From Terriglobia bacterium (lineage in GTDB: Bacteria; Acidobacteriota; Terriglobia; JAJPHL01; JAPKYU01): DNA of 64,000 bases. The notes beneath the pieces are model-generated. The model had not been told where the DNA came from, made no database searches, and saw only the letters and a program-made list of their open reading frames with translations. Positions 1,009 to 55,432 of this stretch are shown piece after piece; position 1 is the stretch's first letter, and every line of letters starts with the position of its first letter. The stretch is taken from assembly GCA_965223005.1 (NCBI GenBank), contig CBDCVK010000010.1, positions 1,019,656 to 1,083,655 of the forward strand, read 5' to 3'. The translations under genes and the position numbers were made by a program.

Positions 1009-2061
1009 CTACCCAGCGGTGACGGGCTCCAGTTCCCCCTTGCGGTAGGCGCGGAGGAAGTTCTTACAGTTCCGGTCGTGCCCTGTCAGCATGTCCTGGG
1101 CCAGCTGATAGGGCCGGGAACTCTTGTCTGCCGAGAACACCCGGTTCAGATCGTTGCCCACGGGGTCCACGATGCCGCTGTCGGCGCCTGCTTCCACGGA
1201 GAGATTGATGAACGCCTCGTTGATCAACCGGCGGCAAGGGAGGCCGAACGACACGTTGCTCAAGCCGCCCGTCAGGTGAATCTTCTCGCCGTACTTCTCA
1301 CGCAGCTGGCGGATCGCCTCCAGGTAATGGTTTCCGAACTGACCGTCCACCGAGATGGGGAAGACCAGGCCGTCCACATAAAGGTCCTCAATGGGGAGGC
1401 TCTTAGCCAGGGCGGTATCGATCACCTGGGAAGCGTTGGCCACTCGCTCCTCGGTGTTTTGGGGCATGCCGCTGGAGCCAGAGGCCGTGACGATCACCGA
1501 CAGGTTGCGCTCCCGGGCCAGGTCCAGTGCCTCCAGCCGTTCCAGCGAGGCGGAGTTCAGCATGGCCCGGCCTGTGCTCCCCGAGCAGGCCTGAATGCCG
1601 GCGCGAATGGTGTCCAGATTGGAGGAATCAATCGAGAGCGGCACCGGCGCCAGCGGTTCGATGGCGCGCACCAGCCAGCGCATCGCTTCGAACTGTTTGT
1701 CCGGGTAGAGGGAGACCTCGTCCACGTTCAAGTCCAGGAAGTCCGCGCCGCCTTTGAGCTGCCGCGTCATCAGCGCGCGCAGGTACTCCATTCCTTCGGT
1801 GGCGGCGGGCTCGCCGCCCGACATGGCCGCCCTCACCGCGATGGCCACGTGCTTGACGCGCCCCTCCTCATAGTCCTGCTGGCTCTTGACCTGTTCCGGG
1901 ATGATCAGGTAGCGGGTTTCTCCGCTCGCGCTGGTGTAGCGGACCGCCTCCTCACCGCTGGGAGTGGTGGTGACTAGCTTGCCAGCGCGGCGCAAGACGC
2001 GGGTCGTGTGGATGTTTTCCCCGATGACAACGAATTCCTTGTTCAAGTCTTGAGGTTTCAT
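1009..2061 (-). CDS. Pterin-binding methyltransferase, likely methyl-THF:corrinoid methyltransferase (MT2; MtvA/CmuB/AcsE-like)
   Basis: 350 aa. FVVIGENIH near the N-terminus and a GLSNVSFG motif are typical of the DHPS-like pterin-binding fold (MetH/AcsE/MtrH). 4-nt overlap with the upstream MTHFR gene. Confidence 0.8.
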   Translation of the reverse strand: MKPQDLNKEFVVIGENIHTTRVLRRAGKLVTTTPSGEEAVRYTSASGETRYLIIPEQVKSQQDYEEGRVKHVAIAVRAAMSGGEPAATEGMEYLRALMTRQLKGGADFLDLNVDEVSLYPDKQFEAMRWLVRAIEPLAPVPLSIDSSNLDTIRAGIQACSGSTGRAMLNSASLERLEALDLARERNLSVIVTASGSSGMPQNTEERVANASQVIDTALAKSLPIEDLYVDGLVFPISVDGQFGNHYLEAIRQLREKYGEKIHLTGGLSNVSFGLPCRRLINEAFINLSVEAGADSGIVDPVGNDLNRVFSADKSSRPYQLAQDMLTGHDRNCKNFLRAYRKGELEPVTAG

Positions 2062-3605
2062 TGTTCCTTTGGTTTCTTAGGGGCGTTATGGTCCCGCTCG
2101 AGGAAGGCATTGGCCCAGGCGCTGGTGCCTCGCAGCGCTCCATTGCGGAAGACCACGGGCCGGTCGAGCATCTGCTCCTCCTCGCCATAGGCCTTCAGAC
2201 GCTGGTAGGCGCGGCTCCAGATGCACTCCTTCTCCCCGACTTCGCACAGGCCCTGCCGCGTTCCTCCGCAGGGACCGTTGCGTTGGTTCTTCACGCATTG
2301 CGACTCGGGACAGAGGTAGGCGATGTCCGGGAGGGAGCAGTCGCCGCAGTCCTGACAGTCGAAGGCTAGGATTTTGAATGCGTGCTCGGCCGTGTGCAGC
2401 GCCTTGCGTATCCGCGGCGATCCCTCCACCGACTGGTAGAGCGCCTTTCCCGCCCGGAACCCCGAGGAGCCCTGCTCGAATAGCTCCCCGTGCACCAGGC
2501 GGTTGAGCCGGTAGGAGAGCGGCGCGCCGGCCGGCGAGGCTTTCGAGCGTAAGTACTCGCGGTTGACCTCCGAGGAACTGAGGCCCGTCTTTGGATCGGG
2601 CTCAAAGTAGTAGAACTCGTCAGGCTGGGCGAAACGAATCTGGCGGGCAAACTCCTTCCAGTCATTGTCGCCGAAGCTGTCCCAGATCTGGAGGATCCGC
2701 TCGTAGTCTTCGAACCGCAGATGCCCCCCCAGGTAGACCCCCCGATAGCCGAGTCCCCGGGCGATGGCGCACTGCTTGGCGGCGAACTCCAGGAAGAATG
2801 CCTTGCCCTTGTCGGGCGAGGCTCCCTGCTCCTCGGCCAGCCCCAGCAGTTCATCGGTGATCACGGCGCCGGGAATCCGGCCAGCGTGAAAGAAGCGTGA
2901 GGCGGGGGTGCTGAGGACGTAGACATTGCACAGAACGGGCACCTGGAGTCCCTTCAGCGCCATGTAGCGCAGTAACTCATCCTGCTTTCGCGCGTCGTAG
3001 CCGATCTGGTTGATGATGAAGCGGGCGCCGGCCTCGACCTTCTTGGCCAGCTTAAAGTACTGCGGCATCACCTCGCCCTCATAGCGCTTGTGGTTGTTCA
3101 CCACCGCGCCGAGGAAAAATTTGGTCCCCTCCATGTGGGAGTACATTTGCAGCAAACCGACCGAATCCGTGTCAAAGACAGGGGCGGCCTGGCCCTGGTA
3201 GCCGGTCACCGGGTAGTCACCGGACAGCGTCAGCACATTGTGGAAGCCTTCGCTCGCCAACTTCCAGCCGCGGCTCTCCAGCGCGTTGCGGTTCCAATCC
3301 TTGCAAGAGAGGTGAATGATGACCTCCTGGCCGCGGGAGATCAGGTCGGTGCCCAAGGTGTCAGCGCTAAGCATCGCGCTCCCGCCCGGGTTGTCCGTGA
3401 TGCTGAGGGCATGGAAGCGCGGATGCTCGGCCAGCAACCGCGCCATTTCCAGAACGCGGCGGCCGCTGCGCTCGATGATCAGACCGCGGGAAGTCACCAG
3501 CTCGACCACAATGAGGAAGCTGGAGGTTTCCTCCATCTGGTAGCGGAACGTTCGCTTGCTCCAGGCACCGGAAGTTGGCCGCGTGGGCCCGGGAGATGCG
3601 CTCAC
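2058..3605 (-). CDS. metF: Methylenetetrahydrofolate reductase (MetF-like) fused to a MetV-like Cys-rich C-terminal domain
   Basis: 515 aa. The N-terminal ~300 aa resemble the MTHFR TIM barrel. The C-terminus carries CQDCGDCS...CPESQC...GPCGG...C, a cluster typical of the MTHFR C-terminal (MetV) zinc-ribbon domain. ATGA overlaps with both neighbours. Confidence 0.75.
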   Translation of the reverse strand: MSASPGPTRPTSGAWSKRTFRYQMEETSSFLIVVELVTSRGLIIERSGRRVLEMARLLAEHPRFHALSITDNPGGSAMLSADTLGTDLISRGQEVIIHLSCKDWNRNALESRGWKLASEGFHNVLTLSGDYPVTGYQGQAAPVFDTDSVGLLQMYSHMEGTKFFLGAVVNNHKRYEGEVMPQYFKLAKKVEAGARFIINQIGYDARKQDELLRYMALKGLQVPVLCNVYVLSTPASRFFHAGRIPGAVITDELLGLAEEQGASPDKGKAFFLEFAAKQCAIARGLGYRGVYLGGHLRFEDYERILQIWDSFGDNDWKEFARQIRFAQPDEFYYFEPDPKTGLSSSEVNREYLRSKASPAGAPLSYRLNRLVHGELFEQGSSGFRAGKALYQSVEGSPRIRKALHTAEHAFKILAFDCQDCGDCSLPDIAYLCPESQCVKNQRNGPCGGTRQGLCEVGEKECIWSRAYQRLKAYGEEEQMLDRPVVFRNGALRGTSAWANAFLERDHNAPKKPKEQ

Positions 3606-5233
3606 GGCTTCCCTCCGAACGCCGCAGGCATGGGCTTAAACTGGCAGCCCTCGACAAAGACGTCAAAAAAGTCGGGGGTCGTTTCCAGCTCAATGTGCTC
3701 GATGCCTTTGACCAGTTCCTCGATGGCGCGGCGCTTGCGCCGCGACAGCAGGATCTGCCGCGCTCCGGCCACCGCGGCGTTGCCTACCTTGACGACGCGA
3801 TCCTCGGGCACCGGCGCCAGGAACCCGATCTCGACGGCATGGCCCACGTTGACGTAATTCGCGAAACCACCGGCCAGGTACAGCCGGCTGATGTCAGCCG
3901 GACGCACACCGAACCGGCGCAAGGCGATGTACTGGCCGCAGTAATTGGCGGCTTTGGCCTGCGCCAGGTTGCTGGCGTCTTGCCGCGAGAAGGTGATGCC
4001 CTGCTCGGGCACGATGGGGAGCTCGTACTGCTTCTTGGCAAAGACGCCTTTCGGCGTCATCAGCCCATGCCGGCGCAGCTCGGCGAGTAGATCGATCAGA
4101 CCCGAGCCGCAGATTCCCTTCGGCGCGGCGTTGCCGATGGTCTGGTAGTCCCAGGTATTGCCGCTCAGCCGCAGCGCCTCGATGGCTCCGTCGCCGGCGG
4201 TCATGCCGTACTTGATGAGCCCACCCTCAAAGGCTGGACCCGCCGGGCAGGAAGTGGCCAAAAGCCGGCCGGCATGGCCCACCACTACCTCTGTATTGGT
4301 GCCCACATCCACCAACATGACCGGGTCGCGTTGGGAGGCGATATCGATCGCGACCAGGTCGGCGAGGGTGTCCGCCCCCACGTGGCTGGCCACCAGGGGA
4401 GCCCCCACGACACGGGCCTTGGGATGCGTCAGCAGGCCCAGGCGGTGAGCCAGCTCGGTCAGCGCCGTCGTTGTGCGCTGCCCGGCCAGGTATTCGTGCT
4501 CGACCAGCGACTTGTAGGGTTTCTGGCCGATGGACTGCACGTCCAGATTGAAGAACAGGTCGCGCATCGTAGAGTTGCCGACCAGAATGGCCTCGTAAAT
4601 CTCATGGCGCACGATTCCCAGTGTCTGACACATCGCCCGCAGCTCGTAGTTGACTGCCGTGATCACACTCTTGTGGAGTTCACCCTGGAATGGGCCGGAA
4701 TCGTAGGAGATGCGGTGCATGATGTCGCTGCCGCCGAAGCGCTGAGGGTTCTCCAGCGAGCCCAGGCAGGCGACCGCGCCCGTCTCCAGGTCCACGAGCT
4801 CGACAACAATGGTGGTGGTACCCAGGTCAATGGCCAGGCCGTAAAGGTGGCCGCGGTAGTGGTCAACCACCTCGCCGTCGTAGAGGACTTTGTCGCCGGC
4901 GCGGGTGACCAACGGATCCAGTTCAACTGCGGTGGCGGCGGAACTGGTCAGAATCTGCGGGCGGCGGCGGAGCAGTTCGAACGCAACGTCAATGTCGGGA
5001 TCTTCGACCACCGCCTGGCAGGCCAGCCGGTAGTTCTCCCGCAGGAACTCTTCCGCCTCGGTGCGCGGACATAAGGCCTCCACGCCGCGCTTGATTTCCA
5101 CGATGCATTCGTGACAGATGCCGCTGCGGCCGCAGGAGGTGGGCACCTGCACGGCGAGATCGTCGGCATAGTCGAAAACGGTGCGGCCCCGCTCCAGGCT
5201 GCAGCGGCTGCTGTCATAGGAGATGTGGGCCAT
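3602..5233 (-). CDS. RACo-type reductive activator of corrinoid proteins (N-terminal 2Fe-2S ferredoxin domain plus ASKHA ATPase)
   Basis: 543 aa. N-terminus has SCGRSGICHEC...C (plant-type ferredoxin Cys pattern); the body has the ASKHA motif LAIDLGTTT. ATG at rc 5231-5233. Confidence 0.8.
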   Translation of the reverse strand: MAHISYDSSRCSLERGRTVFDYADDLAVQVPTSCGRSGICHECIVEIKRGVEALCPRTEAEEFLRENYRLACQAVVEDPDIDVAFELLRRRPQILTSSAATAVELDPLVTRAGDKVLYDGEVVDHYRGHLYGLAIDLGTTTIVVELVDLETGAVACLGSLENPQRFGGSDIMHRISYDSGPFQGELHKSVITAVNYELRAMCQTLGIVRHEIYEAILVGNSTMRDLFFNLDVQSIGQKPYKSLVEHEYLAGQRTTTALTELAHRLGLLTHPKARVVGAPLVASHVGADTLADLVAIDIASQRDPVMLVDVGTNTEVVVGHAGRLLATSCPAGPAFEGGLIKYGMTAGDGAIEALRLSGNTWDYQTIGNAAPKGICGSGLIDLLAELRRHGLMTPKGVFAKKQYELPIVPEQGITFSRQDASNLAQAKAANYCGQYIALRRFGVRPADISRLYLAGGFANYVNVGHAVEIGFLAPVPEDRVVKVGNAAVAGARQILLSRRKRRAIEELVKGIEHIELETTPDFFDVFVEGCQFKPMPAAFGGKP

Positions 5234-39308: not shown

Positions 39309-40463
39309 CTACGGGCTAAACTGCGCGGAAGTCTTGGCTGGAGGTGCTGCGGGAAGGCTGCTGCCAGGAAAATAATAGCCCGGGCGGGTGCGCACCTTAA
39401 CTTCAGGCCGATCCACGACCACCCTGATGCGGTGAAAGCCGGCCTGGTTGAGATTGTTCGGGCGGTAGGTAATCAGGTACTGGCTGCGCAGTTCTCGAGA
39501 AATCTCGCTCACCGCTCGCTCCACCGCACGACTGGAGAACCCGTCCAGGAGCACCGCGCCAGTCGATTTGGCAAATGCTTCCAACGGGTGATCCCAGAAG
39601 ATGTTCTTCACGCCATGGAAGGCTTCCACCAGCAGGTTGCCAATGTTGACGGTGGGGCCGGTCGCCAGTTCCATAGAGGGCGTCGGCGGGATCCCGGGAA
39701 TGGTGCCGGTGGCCCCTGGCGGGAAGCGCGAGGGAGGAGGTGGGGGTGGTTTCCGGGTCAATTGGGCGCGGACCGTGCTGAGTCCCACAGCATAAATAGA
39801 GATATTGGCCCGTTGTGCCTCCTGCATCACGAACCCTAAGTTCGCCTCACTGCCCATGTCGCGGCTTTCCGCAATAGCCAGAACCACTTTGCGCCGTCCC
39901 AGGGGACGAGTGCTGAGCATGGACAGGGCACGAACCATCGCATCGGTCAGCCGCGACTGCGAGCTGCCCGGCTTCAGATCCTTGAACACTTTCTCCACCC
40001 GTTCCGGGTCGCGAGTAAAGTTCTGAACCACCTCTACCCGGTGATCAAACCTAATCAGGGCGGCCTCGTCATTTTCTCCGAGCAGCAGATTGGTGAACAG
40101 CGGTGCCGCCTTCTTCACCTGGGGAAGCAAAGGTTCCACCCGGGAGCTAACGCTAAGCAGGATGGCCACTGAAAGCGGCATCTCGGTCAACTGCACTTTG
40201 ATCTGCTGGCGAATCGTGTTGTCGAACAGCAGAAAGTCTTCCGGCCTCAGGTTCAGTACGAATTCGTCGTACCCGTCGGTGACGGTGACCGGAGCCATTA
40301 CCTCGGTTACTCCGACGCGGAAGGTGGGGATCCGCTGTTGGCTGTCTGGTGGTGGCGCCGCGGTTGGCGGCTTCGCTTCTGTGGGCGGTGTTTGCGCCGC
40401 AGCCGCCGCAGCCAATGCTACGCAGAGGCACAGCAGGGAGGGTAGCCGCCAGAAGCACTTCAT
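39309..40463 (-). CDS. Secreted VWA-domain protein (acidobacterial VWFA-related family)
   Basis: Signal peptide MKCFWRLPSLLCLCVALAAAAAAQ, a von Willebrand A fold and a poly-Pro linker. Confidence 0.6.
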   Translation of the reverse strand: MKCFWRLPSLLCLCVALAAAAAAQTPPTEAKPPTAAPPPDSQQRIPTFRVGVTEVMAPVTVTDGYDEFVLNLRPEDFLLFDNTIRQQIKVQLTEMPLSVAILLSVSSRVEPLLPQVKKAAPLFTNLLLGENDEAALIRFDHRVEVVQNFTRDPERVEKVFKDLKPGSSQSRLTDAMVRALSMLSTRPLGRRKVVLAIAESRDMGSEANLGFVMQEAQRANISIYAVGLSTVRAQLTRKPPPPPPSRFPPGATGTIPGIPPTPSMELATGPTVNIGNLLVEAFHGVKNIFWDHPLEAFAKSTGAVLLDGFSSRAVERAVSEISRELRSQYLITYRPNNLNQAGFHRIRVVVDRPEVKVRTRPGYYFPGSSLPAAPPAKTSAQFSP

Positions 40464-40597
40464 CCCGACTATTCTACATTCATTTCGAGTGGGGTGCACC
40501 TAGTTGCGGTGGGATTGATCGGCCAGGCGGGGGCGTCGCCGGCCCTGGGAGCTCATTGCGCTGCCTCTGCGCCAGCTGCGACAGGGATTTTTCCTGC

Positions 40598-40625
40598 TTG
40601 AAACGTCAGGACGAGCGCTTAGACT
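40598..40625 (+). promoter_or_regulatory. Candidate sigma70-type promoter TTGAAA-16-TAGACT upstream of the SBP56 gene
   Basis: ttgaaa cgtcaggacgagcgct tagact, about 110 nt before the start codon. Confidence 0.3.
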
Positions 40626-40736
40626 ATACTCCCTTTGCCGGCGTGCCTGCGGGCAGCTTCCAGCCGCGCAGGGCACGCCAGGGGCTTCTGATCGTCGCGC
40701 AAAGCGAATGCAAATCCCGGAAAAGGAGAGCGAACC

Positions 40737-42131
40737 ATGGCACTCTTGAAACCTGACCCAACGTTTTACCCTTCCCCCAAGATGGCGATGCAGGCGCCAG
40801 CTGAAAAGCTGGCCTATCTGGCCCTGCTCAATCCGAAGCACAAAGGCCAGCACGACGCTATCGCGGTGGTGGATGTCGACCCTAAATCATCTAGCTATAG
40901 TCAGGTAGTTGGCCAGGTGGAGATGCCCAAAGCAGGCGATGAGCTTCACCACTTCGGCTGGAACGCCTGCAGCGCCTGCCTGTCCCCCTACGCGCCGCAT
41001 GCCCATCTGGAACGGCGCTACCTCGTCGTTCCGGGCCTTCGCTCCTCCCGGATTCACGTCATTGACACGAAGCCTAACCCCCGGAAGCCGAAGATCGTCA
41101 AAGTGATTGAGCCGGAGACATTGGCGAAGCGCACGGGCTACAGCCGGCCGCACACGGTTCACTGTGGTCCGTGGGGTATCTACGTCAGCGCGCTCGGCTC
41201 ACCGACCGGCGAAGGGCCCGGCGGTGTCTTCATGATGGACCAGGACAACTTCGAGGTGCTGGGAAAGTGGGAGTTGGACCGTGGCCCCCAGTACCTGGCC
41301 TATGATTTCTGGTGGCATCTGGGCTACGACGCCATGGTCACCAGTGAGTGGGGCACGCCGAACATGATCGAACAGGGTGTGAACCCAGAGATCTTGCTCA
41401 AAGGTGGTTATGGCCACAAGCTCCACATCTTTGACTTAAACAAGCGGCGTCATCTGCAGGAGCTGGATTTGGGCGCCGAGTATCAGATGGCCTTGGAGCT
41501 TCGACCGGCCCACGACCCCACCAAAGCTTACGGTTTTCTGGGCGTGGTGGTCTCGCTCAAGGATCTTTCAGCGTCAATCTGGTTGTGGAACCTGGAGAAC
41601 GGCAATTGGGGCGTGCGCAAGGTCATCGAGATCCCGGCCGAGCCAGCCGATCCGGACAAGCTGCCGCCGATGCTGAAAGACTTCAAGGCGGTGCCGCCGT
41701 TGGTGACCGACATCGATCTCTCTCTGGACGATCGCTTTCTCTACGTTTCCTGCTGGGGGACGGGTGAGTTCATCCAGTACGACGTGACGGATCCGTTCAA
41801 CCCCAAGAAGACCGGCTCGGTGCATCTGGGTGGCATCGTGCGGCACGCAGCGCACCCCAAGAAGCCCAAGCAGGCGCTGAATGGCGGGCCGCAGATGGTC
41901 GAAGTGAGTCGCGATGGCCGGCGGATCTACTTCACCAACTCTCTCTATGCTTCATGGGACGAGCAGTTCTATCCGGAAGGCATCCGAAGCTGGATGGTGA
42001 AGCTGAATGCCAAGCCGGAGGGTGGCATGGAGATTGACCCGCGCTTCTTCCTGGAGTTCAAGGAGTTGCGCAGCCATCAGGTCCGCCTGGAAGGCGGCGA
42101 CGCTTCCTCGGACTCTTACTGCTACCCATGA
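40737..42131 (+). CDS. Selenium-binding protein 56 / methanethiol oxidase homologue
   Basis: 464 aa. Collinear with human SELENBP1 along its whole length (VVDVDPKS, DELHHFGWNACSAC, FWWH, DIDLSLDDRFLYVSCW, NGGPQM, YFTNSLY...WD.QFYP). No signal peptide, so predicted cytoplasmic. Confidence 0.85.
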   Translation: MALLKPDPTFYPSPKMAMQAPAEKLAYLALLNPKHKGQHDAIAVVDVDPKSSSYSQVVGQVEMPKAGDELHHFGWNACSACLSPYAPHAHLERRYLVVPGLRSSRIHVIDTKPNPRKPKIVKVIEPETLAKRTGYSRPHTVHCGPWGIYVSALGSPTGEGPGGVFMMDQDNFEVLGKWELDRGPQYLAYDFWWHLGYDAMVTSEWGTPNMIEQGVNPEILLKGGYGHKLHIFDLNKRRHLQELDLGAEYQMALELRPAHDPTKAYGFLGVVVSLKDLSASIWLWNLENGNWGVRKVIEIPAEPADPDKLPPMLKDFKAVPPLVTDIDLSLDDRFLYVSCWGTGEFIQYDVTDPFNPKKTGSVHLGGIVRHAAHPKKPKQALNGGPQMVEVSRDGRRIYFTNSLYASWDEQFYPEGIRSWMVKLNAKPEGGMEIDPRFFLEFKELRSHQVRLEGGDASSDSYCYP

Positions 42132-42781
42132 GCGAGGGGGCGTCGTGGGCCTGGCCCGCCTTGCTCCTGTTGGGCGCCTACCACGGCATTAATCCGGGCA
42201 TGGGCTGGCTGTTCGCCGTCGCACTCGGGATGCAGGAGAAGAGCCGTGGAGCCGTCTGGCGGGCTTTGCCCCCCATTGCCCTGGGTCACGGTGTGGCGAT
42301 CGGTCTGGTGCTGCTGGTCGCCGGGCTGGTCCAGGTGGTCGTGCCGCTGGCTTACCTGAAAATTCCAGTCGCCCTGCTCTTGTTTGCTTTCGGCCTGTAT
42401 CGCTTTTTGCGCGGTCGTCACCCCCGGTGGGGCGGAATGCAGGTCGGGTTCCGCGACCTCACCATCTGGTCCTTTCTGATGGCCTCGGCTCACGGCGCCG
42501 GCTTCATGGTGCTGCCGGTTCTGCTCGCGATGCCTTCCGGAGAGGCCGCCGGACACTCCCTCGGGGGCCATCATCTCGGGGCGAGCGCCTTCCAGGGACC
42601 GTTGACAAGCCTGCTGGCGACGCTGGTTCACACCCTGGGCTATTTGCTTGTCACAGGACTGGTGGCCTGGCTGGTCTATGAGAAGCTCGGGCTGGCTCTG
42701 TTGCGGAAAGCCTGGCTGAATCTCGACCTGATATGGGCCTTCTCACTGATGGCGACCGGCTGCCTGACACTGTTGATCTAG
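42128..42781 (+). CDS. Six-TM membrane protein, possibly a NicO/RcnA-like metal transporter, translationally coupled to the SBP56 gene
   Basis: ATGA overlap with SBP56. Two internal repeats carry HGxNPG and AHGAG motifs, plus a His-rich loop (GHSLGGHHLG). Confidence 0.45.
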   Translation: MSEGASWAWPALLLLGAYHGINPGMGWLFAVALGMQEKSRGAVWRALPPIALGHGVAIGLVLLVAGLVQVVVPLAYLKIPVALLLFAFGLYRFLRGRHPRWGGMQVGFRDLTIWSFLMASAHGAGFMVLPVLLAMPSGEAAGHSLGGHHLGASAFQGPLTSLLATLVHTLGYLLVTGLVAWLVYEKLGLALLRKAWLNLDLIWAFSLMATGCLTLLI

Positions 42782-42815
42782 CAGGGTGCTTCATCCAACT
42801 GCATCCAGCAAACTG

Positions 42816-43193
42816 CTAGTCGAGGATTGCCGTGCCCCAGGGGTTGTCGATCACCAATCGCCACGTCCCATCCGGTTGCCGTCGTGCAACGTCGGAGCTC
42901 GTCCCCGTCATGGTCAAGGGTTTGCCGTCCGGCCCGGTACCGTTCAGGGTCCACTTGACCAGTGACAGCGCGAGGTCACCGGCCGTGATCATTTCGCTTT
43001 TCTCCTGCGTCAACTTTGGCTTCATTCCCAGGAAGGCGCCCAGTGCCTCGCGCAGGGCGGCCATGCCGTGCGCCGTCTTGCCAGGCTCGGCGACAAGCGC
43101 GGCATTGGGCTCGTAGAGGGCCAACGTGGCATCGAGATCGCCCGCGTTGAAGGCGCGAAAGAATGCGTCGAGCAATGCTTGTGGAGTTGTCAC
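42816..43193 (-). CDS. SnoaL/NTF2-like protein
   Basis: LLDAFFRAFNAGDLDATLALYEPNAA is typical of SnoaL-like polyketide-cyclase folds. Start trimmed to GTG at 43193 because the longer track ORF runs through the tRNA gene. Confidence 0.45.
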   Translation of the reverse strand: MTTPQALLDAFFRAFNAGDLDATLALYEPNAALVAEPGKTAHGMAALREALGAFLGMKPKLTQEKSEMITAGDLALSLVKWTLNGTGPDGKPLTMTGTSSDVARRQPDGTWRLVIDNPWGTAILD

Positions 43194-43229
43194 TGACAGG
43201 CTTTCCTCCTCATCGTGTTTGTTAGGCAG

Positions 43230-43322
43230 TGGCGGTGAGGGAGGGATTCGAACCCCCGGTCCCGGGGCTACCAGGACAGCCGCTTTCGAGGCGGCCCGAT
43301 TAAACCACTCTCGCACCTCACC
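43230..43322 (-). tRNA. tRNA-Ser (anticodon CGA), 93 nt, with a long variable arm and encoded CCA
   Basis: rc reads GGTGAGG-TG-CGA-GAGTGGTTTAA-TCG-G-GCCGC-CTCGAAA-GCGGC-[21-nt variable arm with a 7-bp stem]-GGGGG-TTCGAAT-CCCTC-CCTCACC-G-CCA. All stems pair and the T-loop is canonical. Confidence 0.85.
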
Positions 43323-43347
43323 GCAAGGCGGGAACGGGCAGTCCGGT

Positions 43348-43806
43348 TCAGGAAAGGCGTTTCTGCTGAAAAAAGCTGCGGATCAACTCCGCGCATTCAG
43401 CGCTAAGAACCCCACCGGCGACCTCCACCCGGTGGTTCAGTCGGGTATCATCGGCCACCTGGTAGAGCGACCGAACCGCCCCGGCCTTGGGGTCGTCGCA
43501 GCCGTACACCAACCGTGCCAAGCGCGCCTGCACGGCCGCCCCGGCGCACATAACACACGGTTCGATTGTAACATACAGCGTACATAGGGGCAGGCGGTGG
43601 TTGCCCAGCCGCCGAGCGGCTTCGCGCAGTGCCAGGATTTCGGCGTGCGCCGTGGGATCGCGATCGGTGATGTTGCGGTTGTGGCCGCGTCCCACCACCT
43701 GGTTTTCCGAGACCACCACCGCTCCGACCGGGACCTCTCCTTCCCGCAGGGCGGCTTCGGCTTCCTCCAGCGCCAGGCGCATGAATTGCTCATCCACAGC
43801 TGCCAC
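43348..43806 (-). CDS. tadA: tRNA adenosine(34) deaminase
   Basis: HAEILALREA ... TIEPCVMCAGA, the CDA zinc motifs. Confidence 0.85.
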   Translation of the reverse strand: MAAVDEQFMRLALEEAEAALREGEVPVGAVVVSENQVVGRGHNRNITDRDPTAHAEILALREAARRLGNHRLPLCTLYVTIEPCVMCAGAAVQARLARLVYGCDDPKAGAVRSLYQVADDTRLNHRVEVAGGVLSAECAELIRSFFQQKRLS

Positions 43807-43898: not shown

Positions 43899-45297
43899 TC
43901 AGAGGCGGTATTTCTTGGCGTAGTGGCGGAAGGAGCGGTAGCTCATGTGGAGCAGTTCAGCGGCGCGCGTGCGAACGCCACCGGCGCGCTCGATCGCCGC
44001 TTCAATGTAACGGCGCTCCAGTTGGGTGATGTGCTGTTCCAGGTCCAGACCTGCATCAGGCAGAGAAGGCAGCGGGGAGGGGACGGCGGAGCCGTCGCCG
44101 CTGGCGGCGGCCGCCACCCCTTGCGGCGCGACCCCGGAGACGCGTTCGGGCAGCGTCCACACCGCAACCTCCTCGTGTTTCTCCAGGGCGACGGCACGCT
44201 CCAGGGCGTTTTCCAGTTCCCGCACATTGCCCGGCCAGTCGTACCGTTCCAGGCACTTCATGGCCGGCTCGTCAATCTTGTGGACCGGTTTGTTCATCGC
44301 CCGAGCAAACTTCTTCAGGAAGTGGACGGCCAGCAGGCGGATGTCCTCGCGGCGCTCTCGGAGCGGCGGCAACTCCACCGGGATGACACTGATGCGGTAG
44401 TAGAGGTCCTCACGAAAGGAGCCTTCCTGGACGCGTTGGTGAAGGTCCTTGTTGGTGGCCACGATCAGGCGCACGTCTATCGGCACCTCCTCGCTGGCCC
44501 CGATCGGACGCACCAGCCGCTCCTGCAACACACGCAGCAGCCTCACTTGCATCGCCAGGCTCGTCTCGGCGATCTCGTCCAGAAACAGGGTGCCGGTGTC
44601 AGCGTACTCAAACAGCCCCTTCTTATTGGTGGTGGCTCCGGTGAAGGCGCCTTTGACGTAGCCGAACATCTCGCTCTCGAGCAGTGTTTCGGGGAAGGCG
44701 CCGCAGTTGACCGAGACAAACGGGCGGTCCCAGCGGCCGCTGGCGGCGTGAATGGCGCGGGCCACCAGTTCCTTGCCGGTGCCGCTCTCGCCGGTGATCA
44801 GGATGGTGCTGTTGGTGGGGGCGACGGTGGCCACCAACTCCTTTCAACGCCTTGATGGGCGGGCTCACCCCCAGCAGGCTGTCCAGGCTCTTGCGCAACT
44901 CGCGCTTGAGCGCACGATTTTCCTGCCGCAGGCTGCGATCCTCGACTCCCCGGGCCACAGTGACCCGCACTTCGTCCACCAAGTTGGGAGTCTTGATGAT
45001 GTAGCGGAAGGCGCCCAGGTTCAGGGCTTGCACTGCCGAATCCACCGAGGCATAGGCGGTCACCAGGATGACCAGGGTCTCAGGCTGGGTCTCGCGGACG
45101 TGTTGCAGGACATCCAGGCCGCTGCCCTGCGGCAGTTTGATGTCGGTGATGACGATGTCGTATATGTTGGAGAGCAGTCGGCGATGCGCCATCTCCAGCG
45201 AGGTGACCGTTTCCACCCGGTGCCCCTGCTTGCGCAGGGCGATATCCAGCATTTCGCAGATGGATTTCTCGTCATCCACCACCAGCAGGTGGGCCAT
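43899..45297 (-). pseudogene. NtrC-family sigma54-dependent response regulator (REC + AAA+ + Fis HTH), interrupted by a +1 frameshift
   Basis: The REC domain (MAHLLVVDDEKS...) and the AAA+/HTH part ([21 protein letters not shown]) lie in different frames. The junction is at ...[12 protein letters not shown] | (E)[23 protein letters not shown]. Observed aaaggagttgg versus expected aaagagttgg implies one extra G near 44838-44842. Confidence 0.6.
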
Positions 45298-45300
45298 GGC

Positions 45301-47032
45301 TCACTCGGTTGCGGCGCTCCGCGTATGCGCGAACGGAATGGATCCGGGCTCGGAGGCACGAGGAAGGTTCGGTTTCCCCAGGGTCAGCGGAAGCTCCAGC
45401 TGGAACACCGAACCTCCTTCGGGTACCGATTCGACCCCGACCGTTCCCTGGTGCGCCGTGATGATTTCATACACAATCGCCAACCCCAGGCCGGTGCCAT
45501 TGGTGAAGGCGGACTGGAACGGCTCGAAGATTTTTCCCGGAAGGGCCGGGCTCAGCCCGACACCGGTGTCGTGGAAGCGGATCACGCCATGCCCGTCGGC
45601 GCGGACCGTTTCCACCTTCAGCTTGCCGCCCTCGGGCATGGCCTTCAGCGCGTTGTCGCAGATATTCCAGAAGACCTGCTTGATGGCGTCGAGATCCACC
45701 TGGGCCACCAGCGGCTCGGCCACAAAGACGCGCTCGAAGCGGATGCGGCCCGCGTCGGGATGGTTCTCCAGCAGGACCAGTGTTTCTTCCAGCAGCCCAT
45801 GCAGGTCAGCCGGGCGAAACTCATAGCGGCGTTCCCGGGAATAGCTCAGAAAATCGGAGACGATGCGATCCAGGCGCTGTGACTCCTTCACGACGATCCC
45901 CACCAGTCGCTGCTGTTCACTGGGGAGCGAGCCCAGGGTGGAAAAGACCTTGATGGAGCCGGCGATCGAGGTCAACGGGTTGCGAATCTCGTGGGCGATG
46001 GCGGAAGCCATGCGGCCCAGTGCCGCCATGCGCTCCTTCAGCCGGACCTCTCGCTCCAACCGCTTCAGTTCGGTCAAGTCCTGAAAAAAGTAGACGTGCC
46101 CCTGCGAGGCATGTCCCTGTCCGCTGCTGTCAGGCCAGGTGAGCTCCGACACGCTCACGCGCAGGTATTTCTCCTGCCCGCCGGGAGTGAAGATCTCGAC
46201 CTCCTGTGCCGGGGCATTCAGCGATAGGCGAGCGAATTCCGGCAGCACCTCCGCCAGCGGCCGACCCACGGCGGCAGCAGGCGAGCGCTCCAGGGTCAGC
46301 GCGGCGGCCCGGTTCAACAGCAGTACGCGTCCCCCCAGGCCGGTGGTCACCAGCCCGCCGGCCATGCTGTCAATCACGTTCTCGTTGAACGCCTGCAGGT
46401 TCTCCAGCTCGCCGCTGGCGGCCTGAAGCCGGGTGCCAGTCTTGCGCAGGTTCTCCACCAGACTGCTGGAAAGGTAGGCCATCGCCAGGAAGGCAAACAG
46501 GTTGGTAAAGATTCGCACCTGCAAGTCCTGCAGCTCCGGCGTCATTTCTGAAAGCGCAAGGAGAAAATCCTTCAACTCGTTATACAAGGAGAGTTCCAGC
46601 GTGGCCCCGGCCAGAATGAAGCTGAGGCTGGCGACCAGGTACGTCCCCGCCCTCGACAGCGAGATAGCCGCCAGGATGATCACCAGCGGGTAGAGGAAAA
46701 AGTAGGGGCTGCCCACCCCCCCGCTGAAATGGATGACCGCCGTAATCATGCAGATGTCGCAGATGATCTGCAGGTAGGACTGCATGGTGTAGTCGGTGGA
46801 GAGTTTCAGCAGCAAGCTGAAGAAGATGGTCAGCGCATACCAGAACAGGACAGTGAAGACGAACCATCGGACCGGGATCTGAGCCTGGGTTAACTGCGCC
46901 ACCGCCAGTTGGATGCATCTGAGCCTGGGTTAACTGCGCCACCGCCAGTTGGATGCCGAGCAGGAACGTAATAATGACGATCCGGACGCGGATCAGCCAC
47001 AGCAACCACTGCCTCTGATTTAGCGCTTCCAT
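45301..47032 (-). pseudogene. Membrane sensor histidine kinase (NtrB/AtoS-like, PAS + HisKA + HATPase), disrupted by a 40-bp perfect tandem duplication near its 5' end
   Basis: True N-terminus MEALNQRQWLLWLIRVRIVIITFLLGIQLAVAQLTQAQ (ATG rc 47030-47032) is in a different frame from the body MAQLTQAQIPVRWFVF... Deleting one copy of the 40-nt repeat (46877-46916 = 46917-46956) restores a single ORF. H-box MASAIAHEIRNPL. Confidence 0.6.
46877..46956. repeat. Perfect 40-bp tandem duplication within the histidine-kinase 5' region
   Basis: atctgagcctgggttaactgcgccaccgccagttggatgc occurs twice back to back. Confidence 0.95.
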
Positions 47033-48007: not shown

Positions 48008-49513
48008 TCAGATCGGAGTGCAGACCGACTTCACTTCGGTGTACGCCTCGAGCACTTCATGTCCCATCTCGCGCCCCCATCCGGATTGTTTGTATCCGCC
48101 GAAAGGCAGCGCCGCATCAAAGATGTTGTAGCAGTTGATCCAAACGGTGCCCGCACGGAGTTGAGAAGCAATGCGGTTTGCCTTTTGAATATCGCGGGTC
48201 CATATGCCTGCCGCTAATCCGTAGATCGTGTCGTTTGCTTGCGCAATGAGTTCATTTGCGTCACGAAACGGAATGGCAGTTACTACCGGGCCGAAGATTT
48301 CCTCTTGGACTACCTTCATTCTTTCGTTGGTATTCACCAACACTGTCGGCTTTACAAAATATCCCTTCTCGCCGAGCCTGCTGCCTCCAACGACTGCCTT
48401 GGCTCCTTCTGAAAATCCGGATTCCAGGTAACCGCAGACCCGATTCAATTGTTCCTCGGAAACCAGGGGGCCCATATCAGTGGAGGACTCCAAACCAGGG
48501 CCGACATGGATTTTTTGGGCTTGTTCGGCGATGCCTTCCACCACCTTGTCAAATGATCCTTTCTCGATGTACAGCCGGGACCCGGCAGAGCAGCACTGAC
48601 CGTGGTTGAAGAATATTGCGCTCGCCGCGCCAGGAATCGCGGTTTGCATATCAGCATCGTGCAACACAACGTTCGGCGATTTGCCGCCAAGTTCCAGAGA
48701 GACCTTCTTGAGATTTCCGGTGGCCGCTTGAATGATCAGCTTTCCTACCTCGGTGGATCCAGTGAACGCAACTTTATCCACTTTCGGATGAGCGGCTATC
48801 GCTGCGCCAGCCGTTTCTCCGTATCCTGGAACGATATTGACAACTCCGTCAGGGAATCCTGCTTCCTGAATCAGTTCGCCGAGTCGAATAGAGGTGAGAG
48901 GCGTCTGCTCGGCCGGCTTCAAGACCACCGTGCAGCCAGCCGCCAGCGCCGGGCCAAGCTTCCAGGCGGCCATCAAGAGCGGGAAATTCCATGGGATGAT
49001 CTGTCCAACAACCCCCACCGGCTCGCGCAGGGTATATGCGAGGTATTTCACGCCGGGGGTGTAGGGGACAGAAATTGGAATCGTATTTCCTTCGATCTTT
49101 GTCGCCCACCCGGCCATATAGCGAAATAGGTCGACCGCAAGTGGTACGTCGGCGGCGCGGGCAACTTTGAGCGGCTTGCCATTGTCCAGAGACTCGAGTT
49201 GAGCGAACTCTTCCAGATTCTTTTCTAGGAGATCAGCGAGCTTCCAAATGAGACAGCCGCGCTCCGAGGCAGTGAGCCTTGACCACGGCCCGGTGTCAAA
49301 TGCAGCCCGGGCCGAGTTAACTGCGCGATCGATATCCTCTCGGTCTCCCTCGGCAACCTGGGAAAGAACTTCTCCGGTCGCCGGATTATAGGTTGCAAAT
49401 GTCTTTCCCGACGCAGATTGCACCCACTTTCCATTGATGAGCATCTTTTGAGTTGTTGAAACAAAGCGGGTTACCTTGTCATCCAACTTATGGGTTTGCG
49501 TGGCAGTGGCCAT
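48008..49513 (-). CDS. NAD(P)-dependent aldehyde dehydrogenase
   Basis: 501 aa with LELGGKSP, catalytic Cys GQCCSAGSR and EEIFGPV. Confidence 0.9.
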   Translation of the reverse strand: MATATQTHKLDDKVTRFVSTTQKMLINGKWVQSASGKTFATYNPATGEVLSQVAEGDREDIDRAVNSARAAFDTGPWSRLTASERGCLIWKLADLLEKNLEEFAQLESLDNGKPLKVARAADVPLAVDLFRYMAGWATKIEGNTIPISVPYTPGVKYLAYTLREPVGVVGQIIPWNFPLLMAAWKLGPALAAGCTVVLKPAEQTPLTSIRLGELIQEAGFPDGVVNIVPGYGETAGAAIAAHPKVDKVAFTGSTEVGKLIIQAATGNLKKVSLELGGKSPNVVLHDADMQTAIPGAASAIFFNHGQCCSAGSRLYIEKGSFDKVVEGIAEQAQKIHVGPGLESSTDMGPLVSEEQLNRVCGYLESGFSEGAKAVVGGSRLGEKGYFVKPTVLVNTNERMKVVQEEIFGPVVTAIPFRDANELIAQANDTIYGLAAGIWTRDIQKANRIASQLRAGTVWINCYNIFDAALPFGGYKQSGWGREMGHEVLEAYTEVKSVCTPI

Positions 49514-51586: not shown

Positions 51587-52375
51587 ATGGCGCTAGCGTT
51601 GGCCCTAGTGTTGGCCCTGATCACCATTTCCAGCATGCTTGTGTTCGCCGGGCAGTACTGGTGGTTTCCCGTGCTGGCCTCCGAACACGGGGGCGCCATT
51701 GACCAGCAGATCGTCTGGACGTTCGTGCTTTGCGGCGTCATTTTCTTCGCGGCACAAATCGGGCTGGGATGGGTGATCTTCCGCTACCGCGCGCGGGGCC
51801 AGCAGACCCAATACTCGCACGGCAGCAACCGGATGGAAGTGGCCTGGACGATAGCCACCGCCATCATGTTCATCGGGATCAATCTGCTGGGGCAGAAGGT
51901 TTGGGCCGAGCGCTACTTCGCCAGTGCGCCGCGCGGGGCTATGCAGATTGAGGTGGTGGGCCAGCAGTTTGTCTGGAACATTCGCTACCCGGGCCCGGAC
52001 GGCAAGTTCGGCCGCACCGACATCCACCTGGTGAACGATGCGGCCGGCAACCCCTTGGGCCTGGATGACACGGATGCCGCTGCCGGCGATGACATTGTGG
52101 TGCCGACTATGGCGGTGCCCATCAACCGCCCGGTGGAGCTGATCCTGCGCTCCAAAGACGTGACCCACAGCTTCTTTGTGCGCGAGTTGCGGCTCAAGCA
52201 AGACACCGTGCCGGGCATGGTGATCCGCGCGCATTTCACTGCCACCCGGGTCGGCCAATACGAGATCGTCTGCGCCGAGCTCTGCGGCCTGGGGCACTAC
52301 AAGATGCGCAGTTTCCTGGATGTGCTTTCGGAGCAAGACTATGAGAAGTGGTTGGAAGAACGAGCAGTTGAGTAA
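51587..52375 (+). CDS. coxB: Cytochrome c oxidase subunit II (aa3-type; no fused cytochrome c)
   Basis: Two N-terminal TM helices and the CuA site H...CAELCG.GH.M. Confidence 0.85.
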   Translation: MALALALVLALITISSMLVFAGQYWWFPVLASEHGGAIDQQIVWTFVLCGVIFFAAQIGLGWVIFRYRARGQQTQYSHGSNRMEVAWTIATAIMFIGINLLGQKVWAERYFASAPRGAMQIEVVGQQFVWNIRYPGPDGKFGRTDIHLVNDAAGNPLGLDDTDAAAGDDIVVPTMAVPINRPVELILRSKDVTHSFFVRELRLKQDTVPGMVIRAHFTATRVGQYEIVCAELCGLGHYKMRSFLDVLSEQDYEKWLEERAVE

Positions 52376-52412
52376 CGGCCGGAGGGGCCGGCGGGGCTAA
52401 GGAGGACCAGCG

Positions 52413-54157
<1,745 letters not shown>

Positions 54158-54158
<1 letters not shown>

Positions 54159-54802
54159 TGCCGGTTGCTTCTGAAACTGTGGAGAAAGTTCCGGGCGTCG
54201 GGGGACGTGGCCCGCGCGACGGCGGCTTCGGTGATGAAGGAGGCCGTGCCGGTCCCCAACCCAACCGGCGCGTCTACCGCACGGGTATCTGGATTGCCCT
54301 GGCGCCCATCATGATGATGTTTGTCGCCTTTTCCAGCGCCTACATCGTGCGCCGCGGCCTCGGCAGGGACTGGCAACCTCTGGAGCTGCCTGCCATCCTG
54401 TGGCTGAATACGGCGCTGCTGGCAGCCAGCAGCCTGGCCCTGGAGCGCGCTCGCGATTGCTTGAACCGCGGGCTGCGAGACGGGTTTAGCCGCTGGTGGT
54501 CGGCGACCACAGCCCTAGGCGTGGCGTTCCTGCTCGGCCAACTGGGTGCATGGTGGCAACTGACGGATCGTGGCGTCTATCTGGCCAGTAATCCCAGCAG
54601 CTCGTTCTTTTACTTGTTGACGGCCACTCACGGCCTGCACCTACTGGGCGGGGAAGTGGCGCTGTTGTATGTGGCCTTCCAGGCGGCGCGCTCGGGAGTG
54701 GGTCCGGCCCCGCGCACCGCGGTGGACGTGAGCGCCGTCTACTGGCATTTCCTGGGCGGCTTGTGGGTCTTCATCTTTTTGCTGCTTCTGGTTTGGAGGT
54801 AG
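54158..54802 (+). CDS. Heme-copper oxidase subunit III-family protein (first of two)
   Basis: 214 aa multi-TM. TGATG overlap with coxA. Subunit-III-like helices (YWHFLGGLWVFIF). Confidence 0.65.
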
Positions 54803-54808
54803 GGAAAA

Positions 54809-55432
54809 TTGTCTGACGCAATAGCACAAGCTCGGGCGGAGATTTGGGGCGGCGGAGTACGCCCCTATGCCGTGCCCTCCAAGAAGCTGGGCATGTGGCT
54901 GTTCATCATCTCTGACTCACTCACCTTCTCCGCGTTATTGGTTACCTACAGCTACGTGCGCCTGGCCAGCGTTGACTGGCCCACCCCGTTTCATGGCTCC
55001 AGTATCGCGCTGGCCAGTGTCATGACCTTTTGCCTGCTGTCCAGCAGCTTGACCATGGTGATGGCGGTTGCCGCTGCCCATCAGGACCGTCGCAAGCAGG
55101 CCGCGCGGTGGCTTTTCGCCACCATCGCGGGCGGCCTGGCGTTTATTGTTCTGCACGTGAATGAGTGGCTCGGTCTGATCCATGAGGGGATGACCCCGTT
55201 CAGCAACCCGTGGGGTACGCCCTTATTCGGAGCCACCTTCTTTGCCCTGACCGGCCTGCACATGACCCACGTCGCCATCGGTGTGATTTACCTGACGATC
55301 GTGGCCCTGGGGTTCCGCGCCGGTCGCTGGAGTGGAACGGACGTGGAGGTCAGCGGGCTGTACTGGCATTTTGTGGATTTGGTCTGGATGTTCATTTTCC
55401 CGCTCGTCTACTTGATGTCGACCAAGATCTAG
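54809..55432 (+). CDS. coxC: Cytochrome c oxidase subunit III
   Basis: 207 aa with LTGLHMTHV...GLYWHFVDLVWMFIFPLVYL. Confidence 0.75.
   Translation: MSDAIAQARAEIWGGGVRPYAVPSKKLGMWLFIISDSLTFSALLVTYSYVRLASVDWPTPFHGSSIALASVMTFCLLSSSLTMVMAVAAAHQDRRKQAARWLFATIAGGLAFIVLHVNEWLGLIHEGMTPFSNPWGTPLFGATFFALTGLHMTHVAIGVIYLTIVALGFRAGRWSGTDVEVSGLYWHFVDLVWMFIFPLVYLMSTKI

Follow-up and report, generated by a model that had tools for sequence, protein, structure and literature searches.

The gene pair analysed here lies in a 64,000-nt stretch of contig CBDCVK010000010.1 from a Terriglobia bacterium (Acidobacteriota); this whole stretch is called the window, and coordinates are window positions unless a locus label (L and a number) is given. 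The first gene encodes an SBP56-family protein and the second a small membrane protein with six predicted transmembrane (TM) helices. An original prediction, made from the letters of the DNA alone, had proposed two open reading frames (ORFs) joined by an ATGA overlap, and both were confirmed on the forward strand (Table 1). The ATG of the second ORF sits within CCATGAGC at the SBP56 stop. A Shine-Dalgarno sequence precedes the SBP56 start, and inspection of the sequence ahead of the second ATG showed no obvious or comparable one, which together with the ATGA overlap fits coupling by reinitiation. The leader contains a weak candidate sigma-70-like promoter, the sole match in 40300-43400, where 0.4 is expected in shuffled sequences; its start, 40598, is also the first coordinate of the feature as originally delimited. 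An Rfam scan of the leader and operon gave no RNA match. Both flanking genes, for a VWA-domain protein upstream and a SnoaL/DUF4440 protein downstream, are on the opposite strand, and the pair is thus an isolated bicistronic unit: the SBP56 gene and the membrane gene form a self-contained two-gene operon.

Conservation of the gene pair had been proposed as a check of the original prediction, and it proved extensive. In all 80 genome loci retrieved with the second ORF (mostly Acidobacteriota, plus Methylomirabilis, Actinomycetota and others), the gene directly ahead, in the same orientation, encodes SBP56. Of 75 loci that could be evaluated, 60 preserve the 4-nt overlap and 65 show an overlap of some length, and in none are the two genes more than 25 nt apart. 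The pair persists where the identity of the membrane protein has fallen to 30-54%, in Sinorhizobium, Ensifer, Rhizobium, Azospirillum, Phaeobacter piscinae, Caballeronia, Cupriavidus and Deinococcus, and is also found in Gemmatirosa, Nonomuraea, Thermaerobacter and the archaeon Pyrobaculum. Pairwise distances of SBP56 and of its partner are correlated (r=0.77, Mantel p about 0.001), with the partner evolving about 1.7 times faster. Chance adjacency is ruled out by the 80 loci and this correlated evolution. More than 8000 homologues of the membrane protein exist, all named 'hypothetical', and they fall into 2612 representative clusters at E<=1e-3, so that the family comprises at least 2,600 clusters at 50% identity. 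No SBP56 membrane partner is described in the literature searched, and the conserved coupling to this unnamed family appears to be undescribed there.

The association is not strictly exclusive. In metagenomes scanned with a distant, Variovorax-type member as seed, 73 loci could be evaluated: 53 members follow SBP56, 15 follow DUF899, and five stand alone or are otherwise placed. Strict SBP56 exclusivity is ruled out by the last two groups. DUF899 is an uncharacterised thioredoxin-fold protein with a CxxC motif, and its neighbour is a shorter, five-helix paralogue, which begins 50-95 nt after the DUF899 gene in the 15 metagenome loci and in Variovorax paradoxus (L089 3839-5552; L112-L130). The stand-alone members L158 and L162 (4001-4648) have no SBP56 nearby, adjoin genes for LigD and a thioredoxin-reductase-like protein, and possess a strikingly His/Met-rich outer loop (MPMEHAHHAG..HAGHMM). 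In the Sulfolobales, an overlapping membrane ORF of 184-185 amino acids occupies the partner position, and is barely recognized by hmmsearch (E=0.002 and 0.08 in a small database). In the ORFs of Saccharolobus shibatae and Metallosphaera sedula (L098 4370-4927; L099 4352-4906), VEG[ML]DP replaces YHGINP, and in M. sedula a cupredoxin/sulfocyanin-like gene (L099 1870-2631) is divergent from SBP56.

The identity of the upstream product is clear. It matches PF05694 over its full length (E=6.1e-196; 652 bits, cutoff 34; profile positions 2-453 of 453), and among solved structures it is closest to 2ECE, a 'hypothetical selenium-binding protein' from Sulfolobus tokodaii, to which it aligns end to end with E=2e-204. 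It is also collinear with human SELENBP1, as originally stated, with 42% identity over an end-to-end alignment; the SELENBP1 sequence used agrees at all 15 positions numbered in PMC10362175. The kinship to MtoX that had been proposed at the same time did not hold at the level of enzyme type: the score against the MtoX equivalog model NF052453 is 101.4 bits, where the cutoff is 650, and identity to Ruegeria pomeroyi MtoX is 27%. The N-terminus, MALLKPDPTFYPSPK, aligns with 2ECE from residue 4, and its inspection revealed no extension, hydrophobic leader or twin-arginine leader; R. pomeroyi MtoX, unlike the window SBP56, begins with a signal peptide (MKRREFGALAAGALAMG / MKRREFGALAAGALAMGLPFRAFA). 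The absence of a signal peptide noted originally was thus borne out, and we infer from the N-terminus that the window SBP56 is cytoplasmic.

The residues on which activity depends in characterised relatives are kept. In SELENBP1, H73 and H74 are both needed for activity, and copper and activity are lost in the H137F, H140F, D189N and E252Q variants (PMC10362175). These six residues correspond to H71, H72, H139, H142, D190 and E254 of the window protein, and the six columns are invariant over three clades except for one Phe at H140 in MtoX. For MtoX, certain His and Trp residues have been put forward as ligands of copper and as precursors of a cofactor (PMC5739008, PMC10936201), and these are likewise kept as H71, H72, H139, H447, W205 and W407, the ligand assignment of the His447 equivalent coming from the same two studies. 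Loss of the copper-binding His/Cys residues had been named as a result that would speak against the original prediction; all ligands are present on the alignment. The enzyme most likely oxidises small thiols such as methanethiol, judging from these residues.

Phylogeny against MtoX, also proposed at the outset, was examined with a neighbour-joining tree of 27 SBP56 sequences, in which three groups were recognized. The MtoX clade, sampled by R. pomeroyi, has a C-terminus that is not comparable; the SELENBP1-like clade (human, Rubrobacter, Paracoccus, Phaeobacter inhibens and Haloferax) ends in GGDC[ST]SD[IV]W[ILQ]; and the 2ECE-like clade (the window, Acidobacteriota, rhizobia, Deinococcus, Sulfolobales and others) ends in GGD[ACS]S[ST]DS[YF]C[YF]P. 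By profile and tree, the window enzyme is not MtoX-type and belongs to the third, 2ECE-like clade, the one associated with the membrane partner. Cys462 in its C-terminal tail is invariant in this clade and absent from SELENBP1-like and MtoX sequences, and the positions of human C466 and H329 are taken by Ala456 and Thr, respectively. Acidobacteria, ascomycetes and S. tokodaii have been noted earlier to form an atypical basal clade, in a study that is silent on gene neighbours (PMC10277263). In short, a known family gains a new member here, from a clade that has no assayed representative in the literature searched.

The membrane protein was modelled with AlphaFold2 from 49 diverse homologues (pLDDT 87.9, pTM 0.83), and the model shows six TM helices, two of them, TM1 and TM4, with a break. 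When Lys+Arg was averaged per loop over 48 sequences, the N-terminus (0.19), the TM2-TM3 loop (0.27) and the TM4-TM5 loop (0.54) were poor in these residues and the TM1-TM2 (2.44), TM3-TM4 (3.75) and TM5-TM6 (1.92) loops were rich, an alternation that points to an N-out/C-out topology with the latter three loops in the cytoplasm and the His-rich TM4-TM5 loop outside. This outer loop contains on average 1.35 Asp+Glu and 2.35 His per sequence, and at least two His in 37 of the 49 homologues. The conserved set consists of four membrane His, two Met at the two helix breaks and one His in a cytoplasmic loop (Table 1). The motifs YHGINPGMGW (residues 18-27) and AHGAGFM (residues 121-127), pointed out in the original prediction, are present and conserved, and the GHSLGGHHLG loop is present, although its sequence varies among homologues. 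The description of the motif as duplicated is real as a motif, but no internal repeat can be detected: a test for a 3+3 repeat failed (P=0.09). The TM6 entry motif survives as YNFDY in the divergent Sulfolobales versions.

Table 1. Features of the SBP56 operon and selected other genes of the window. TM, transmembrane helix; AF2, AlphaFold2.
Feature	Position	Strand	Basis or remark
Candidate sigma-70-like promoter, TTGAAA-16 nt-TAGACT	40598..40625	+	9/12 consensus positions, weak
Shine-Dalgarno sequence AAGGAG	40723..40728	+	8 nt before SBP56 ATG; read directly
SBP56-family protein, 464 amino acids, 2ECE-like clade, predicted Cu-dependent thiol (methanethiol-type) oxidase	40737..42131	+	profile, alignment, tree
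His71-His72 = human H73/H74 = RpMTO H88/H89	40947..40952	+	invariant in 27/27 aligned SBP56
HTVHC: His139, His142, Cys143 = human H137/H140/C141	41151..41165	+	alignment
Asp190 = human D189	41304..41306	+	invariant column
Glu254 = human E252	41496..41498	+	invariant column
His447 = RpMTO H424 = Hyphomicrobium H412, proposed Cu ligand	42075..42077	+	invariant column
C-terminal tail ASSDSYCYP including Cys462, clade-specific	42102..42128	+	alignment, tree
ATGA start/stop overlap (translational coupling)	42128..42131	+	read from sequence
Six-TM membrane protein, 217 amino acids, unannotated family, predicted N-out/C-out	42128..42781	+	AF2, positive-inside statistics
TM1 helix-break motif GAYHGINPGMGWL: His19, Asn22, Pro23, Met25, Gly26, Trp27	42173..42211	+	each conserved in at least 46/49
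TM2 LGHG: Gly53, His54 invariant	42281..42292	+	49/49 sequences
TM3-TM4 loop RGRHPRW, basic cluster, predicted cytoplasmic	42410..42430	+	His98 in 45/49
TM4 helix-break motif WSFLMASAHGAGFMVLP: Trp114, Ser115, His122, Gly123, Gly125, Met127, Pro130	42467..42517	+	
Variable His-rich TM4-TM5 loop MPSGEAAGHSLGGHHLGASAFQG, predicted periplasmic	42530..42598	+	charge statistics
TM5 VHTL	42626..42637	+	His168 in 48/49
TM6 entry motif WLNLDLIW: Trp196, Asn198, Asp200, Trp203	42713..42736	+	
VWA-domain protein	39309-40499	opposite to pair	upstream flank
SnoaL/DUF4440 protein	42816-43316	-	downstream flank
Pterin-binding methyltransferase, MTHFR with DUF5981 C-terminal domain, RACo activator with 2Fe-2S domain	1009-5233	-	

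No named family could be assigned to the membrane protein. The window sequence has no Pfam, NCBIfam or PDB sequence match, the libraries run on the 49 homologues gave nothing usable, and a Foldseek search of the PDB gave a best E-value of 0.56 with every TM-score at or below 0.42. The original prediction had likened the protein to NicO/RcnA-type metal permeases, and this resemblance stands only weakly. Neither NicO (PF03824, window protein and 49 homologues) nor HupE/UreJ (PF04955, 49 members) nor any further transporter model of this Pfam search is matched at E<=10, and Escherichia coli RcnA itself matches PF03824. In hhalign comparisons, E. coli RcnA scored 28-34 (probability 14-33%, P=4.5e-4 to 2e-3) over TM1-3 only, pairing LGAYHGINPG of the partner with LGALHGLEPG of RcnA (LGA[LY]HG[LI][EN]PG), whereas the controls, including reversed and shuffled RcnA, RhtB, RhtC, BioP and a PpoB2 homologue, scored 9-19. 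E. coli RcnA was also used as a query to build a more varied NicO profile, but all sequences retrieved were near-identical ones from E. coli, which left the power of this comparison unchanged. One of the 49 members matches the RhtB exporter model NF007812 at E=6e-5 and bears the JGI name 'homoserine lactone efflux protein'; membership of the LysE/RhtB family was rejected, as hhalign scores for RhtB (14.2) and RhtC (11.3) are both at background. Membership of the PpoB2 family (PF09948) was rejected as well, there being no Pfam match and an hhalign score of 15.0 (P=0.21) against the Paracoccus seriniphilus homologue. On these comparisons, the partner would be related to NicO-type carriers only distantly, at the superfamily level, if at all.

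The gene that follows SBP56 differs among lineages. In R. pomeroyi, mtoX is followed by genes for an SCO protein and a MauG-like (cytochrome c) peroxidase, which confirms the original statement on characterised mtoX operons; no SCO1/SenC and MauG genes are present at the window locus, where only the membrane gene lies downstream. The SELENBP1-like genes of Haloferax, P. inhibens and P. seriniphilus are followed by a 2Fe-2S ferredoxin gene (L106 2962-5537; L107 2926-4651; L109 2974-6571), which overlaps SBP56 in P. inhibens. After the ferredoxin come a PF09948 protein in P. seriniphilus, and a CoA-binding protein, a rhodanese and an MBL-fold hydrolase in P. inhibens. Pfam now lists PF09948 under the name 'PpoB2, copper chaperone'.

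Two variants occur with 2ECE-like enzymes. At the two Streptomyces loci examined, the six-TM partner seems to have been lost (a search of L104 gave no homologue of it), and a membrane protein of about 256 amino acids follows (L111 4570-5337; L104 4475-5257), whose best matches are to ZIP/ZupT, weak at 1e-3 in Pfam and 2e-3 in NCBIfam and both under the curated cutoffs. It contains two HxxxEG motifs, and in Streptomyces strain Caat 7-52 its gene looks split. In an uncultured lineage (L090, L091 and L092; 1088-5645), a divergent TetR gene and an SBP56 gene (447 amino acids) are followed by genes for a rhodanese, a TusA-like protein (84 amino acids), a DsrE-like protein and then the membrane partner. 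This arrangement fits a sulfur-releasing SBP56 and ties the clade to sulfane-sulfur relay proteins.

Several known systems resemble the window operon in part. The PpoB1-PpoB2 locus of Marinomonas mediterranea (PF09948, formerly DUF2182, COG5486) likewise has a copper oxidase gene followed within the operon by a gene for a polytopic membrane protein, and PpoB2 transfers copper specifically to tyrosinase (PMC2855505). A PpoB2-family gene is also part of the SBP56 operon of P. seriniphilus. However, PpoB2 has no detectable sequence kinship with the window partner, its client is a tyrosinase, and the SBP56 beside it in P. seriniphilus is of a different clade. The mtoX-SCO1/senC-mauG operons of Hyphomicrobium sp. 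VS and R. pomeroyi encode an SBP56-family thiol oxidase with the active-site His and Trp residues of the window enzyme, and a copper-delivery gene follows (PMC5739008), but MtoX is periplasmic and scores far higher on the equivalog model than the window protein, and in place of a six-TM protein it is accompanied by SCO1 and a MauG-like peroxidase. RcnA (NicO, PF03824) has six TM helices, LGALHGLEPGH in TM1 against LGAYHGINPGM in the partner, and a His-rich loop; this loop is TM3-TM4 in RcnA and TM4-TM5, predicted to face outward, in the partner, TM4 reads GGLIPCP in RcnA and AHGAG in the partner, and RcnA is an exporter. Small polytopic permeases are encoded with other metal-requiring enzymes, NhlF with cobalt nitrile hydratase, and HoxN, HupE and UreJ with hydrogenase and urease, but these belong to different families, and none of them is known to serve copper or an SBP56 enzyme. 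Closest in the enzyme itself are SELENBP1 and RdMTO of Roseobacter denitrificans, cytoplasmic, copper-dependent methanethiol oxidases that are collinear with the window protein and share its six essential residues (PMC10362175, PMC13603461). They differ in clade, in the C-terminus (GGDCSSDIWI in SELENBP1, GGDASSDSYCYP in the window) and, for SELENBP1-like prokaryotic members, in being paired with a ferredoxin and not with a membrane protein.

The explanation that we favour, with a probability of roughly 45%, is that the membrane protein serves the cytoplasmic SBP56 of the two-gene operon as a dedicated permease or insertase for its metal, copper being the likeliest. The bacterial cytoplasm holds essentially no free copper, and a cytoplasmic cuproenzyme therefore needs a supply route. 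Under this explanation, the first gene would provide a cytoplasmic SBP56 beta-propeller that binds copper on His71/His72, His139/His142, Asp190, Glu254 and His447, and the second, translated by termination-reinitiation at the ATGA, a six-helix inner-membrane protein. The outward, often His/Met-rich loop would capture the ion, which would cross the membrane via a mid-membrane site formed by His54, His168, one His-Met pair at the TM1 break (His19, Met25) and another at the TM4 break (His122, Met127), and the basic cytoplasmic loop with His98 would pass it to newly made SBP56. The metal, the direction of transport and the hand-off are parts of this scheme that we infer. Metal delivery is suggested because polar conservation centres on His and Met at helix breaks in mid-membrane, because the outward loop is often His/Met-rich and a conserved His98 lies in a basic cytoplasmic loop, because the best, albeit weak, remote similarity is to a Ni/Co transporter, RcnA, and because other SBP56 lineages hold SCO1, PpoB2 or a weakly ZIP-like gene in the same slot. 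By analogy with these occupants of the slot, the different metal-delivery solution for SBP56 envisaged in the original prediction is plausible. The more specific proposal, that the partner represents a new class of copper importer or insertase which loads a cytoplasmic cuproenzyme with its metal by direct transfer at the membrane, is a doubtful one at present.

Several findings weigh against metal delivery. No metal-transporter model in Pfam or NCBIfam, NicO included, fits any of the 49 members, and the likeness to RcnA is weak and limited to TM1-3. The outer loop has no His in 10 of the 49 homologues, and the Sulfolobales partners seem to have replaced all four membrane His. When produced recombinantly in E. 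coli, human SELENBP1 and RdMTO take up copper with no partner present (PMC10362175, PMC13603461). The sister clade coupled to a 2Fe-2S ferredoxin hints at an accessory for electron transfer, and the literature searched contains neither an experiment on any member of the partner family nor an activity assay of any 2ECE-clade SBP56. The ferredoxin of the sister clade, the Sulfolobales versions apparently without the His cluster and the unaided copper loading of SELENBP1 and RdMTO keep three rival explanations alive.

In one of these, which we consider unlikely, the partner is a redox or anchoring subunit that docks SBP56 and takes its electrons via a metal or haem held by His, feeding the quinone pool and not forming cytoplasmic H2O2. 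The ferredoxin in the same slot of the SELENBP1-like prokaryotic clade suggests that SBP56 may need an electron partner; moreover, translational coupling favours equimolar synthesis, the four conserved membrane His could ligate a cofactor, and the DUF899-linked relative is paired with a CxxC thioredoxin-fold protein. However, no known haem- or quinone-binding family matches the partner, its four His lie, on the predicted helices, near mid-membrane and not at two levels as in di-haem cytochromes b, and characterised SBP56 enzymes use O2 directly (PMC5739008, PMC10362175). The members that stand alone, or beside the CxxC thioredoxin-fold protein, are better suited by an autonomous transporter than by an obligate enzyme subunit. 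It is quite unlikely, too, that the partner has a protective role, exporting a toxic or surplus species such as sulfite, thiosulfate, persulfide or, like RcnA, a metal. RcnA, the closest detectable relative, is an exporter, and the operon variant with rhodanese, TusA-like and DsrE-like genes between SBP56 and the membrane gene would agree with such a role. But the His-rich loop is predicted to face outward, whereas that of RcnA occupies the position of the cytoplasmic TM3-TM4 loop; anion carriers do not usually have conserved His and Met in the membrane; H2S, H2O2 and formaldehyde need no carrier to cross membranes; and the RhtB exporter match of one member is offset by the background hhalign score.

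Import of a substrate or selenium species (selenite, organic thiols or selenols), with SBP56 as a binding or detoxifying protein and not mainly a methanethiol oxidase, seems improbable. The family was discovered as a selenium-binding protein, the 2ECE-like clade has no equivalents of human H329 and C466, and none of its members has a demonstrated activity. Small thiols are membrane-permeant, however, and the conserved His/Met chemistry suits cations better than oxyanions. SELENBP1 is active without binding selenium, and the binding has been located to a pair of N-terminal Cys (PMC10362175) that is absent from the window SBP56.

The interest of the locus goes beyond this one genome. It joins a distinct SBP56 clade, the holder of the only solved structure (2ECE), to a membrane family that the databases leave unnamed. 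What SBP56/SELENBP1 proteins do physiologically has been disputed for decades, and their copper-dependent thiol oxidase activity was recognised only recently; bacteria, for their part, are generally thought to exclude copper from the cytoplasm. The operon is a widespread and experimentally accessible test case for the loading of a cytoplasmic copper enzyme, the pair being present in cultured and in several genetically tractable organisms, among them Sinorhizobium, Rhizobium, Azospirillum, Deinococcus and Edaphobacter. A partner that delivers metal would join SCO1 and PpoB2 as the third such solution and would add a new transporter family; if the importer or insertase proposal is true, a dedicated copper-import route to a cytoplasmic enzyme would exist in bacteria and archaea, and the 2ECE-like SBP56 clade would be a membrane-associated thiol oxidase system. 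If the partner does not deliver metal, its function is still tied to thiol/sulfur handling in abundant soil Acidobacteriota.

Genes around the pair vary from genome to genome, and the sole recurrent one is a divergent AraC-type regulator with a Cupin_6 sensor domain, found upstream in 15 of the 80 loci (L050 891-1964 (-) and 14 others). It is a candidate regulator of the pair, and its ligand might point to the SBP56 substrate. NTF2/SnoaL-like genes lie beside the pair in the window, in Azospirillum and in Phaeobacter piscinae (L084 2869-3261; L087 1782-2774), but phmmer found them in only six of 92 loci, and the proximity is probably a coincidence.

The original prediction had also linked the operon to a C1/tetrahydrofolate module elsewhere in the window. 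This link was not upheld: the module is 35 kb away, with secA, ftsA, pheST, thrS and accC in between, and no C1 gene recurs as a neighbour of the pair in the 80 loci. The module itself is a corrinoid/folate methyl-transfer system, unusual for Acidobacteriota and possibly a demethylase system. Links to an aldehyde dehydrogenase gene (48008-49513) and to a haem-copper oxidase operon (51587-55432) were rejected because neither recurs near the pair in other genomes. The latter operon, on the forward strand about 9 kb downstream of the pair, encodes COX2, COX1 and two COX3-like proteins and is copper-requiring. Between the two, an NtrC-type response regulator (43899-45297, reverse strand) appears to be divided into two overlapping ORFs in different frames, the receiver at 44623-45297 and the AAA+/HTH part at 43899-44837; it adjoins a histidine kinase gene (45301-46902), and its apparent division could reflect a frameshift, an error of sequencing or a genuine split.

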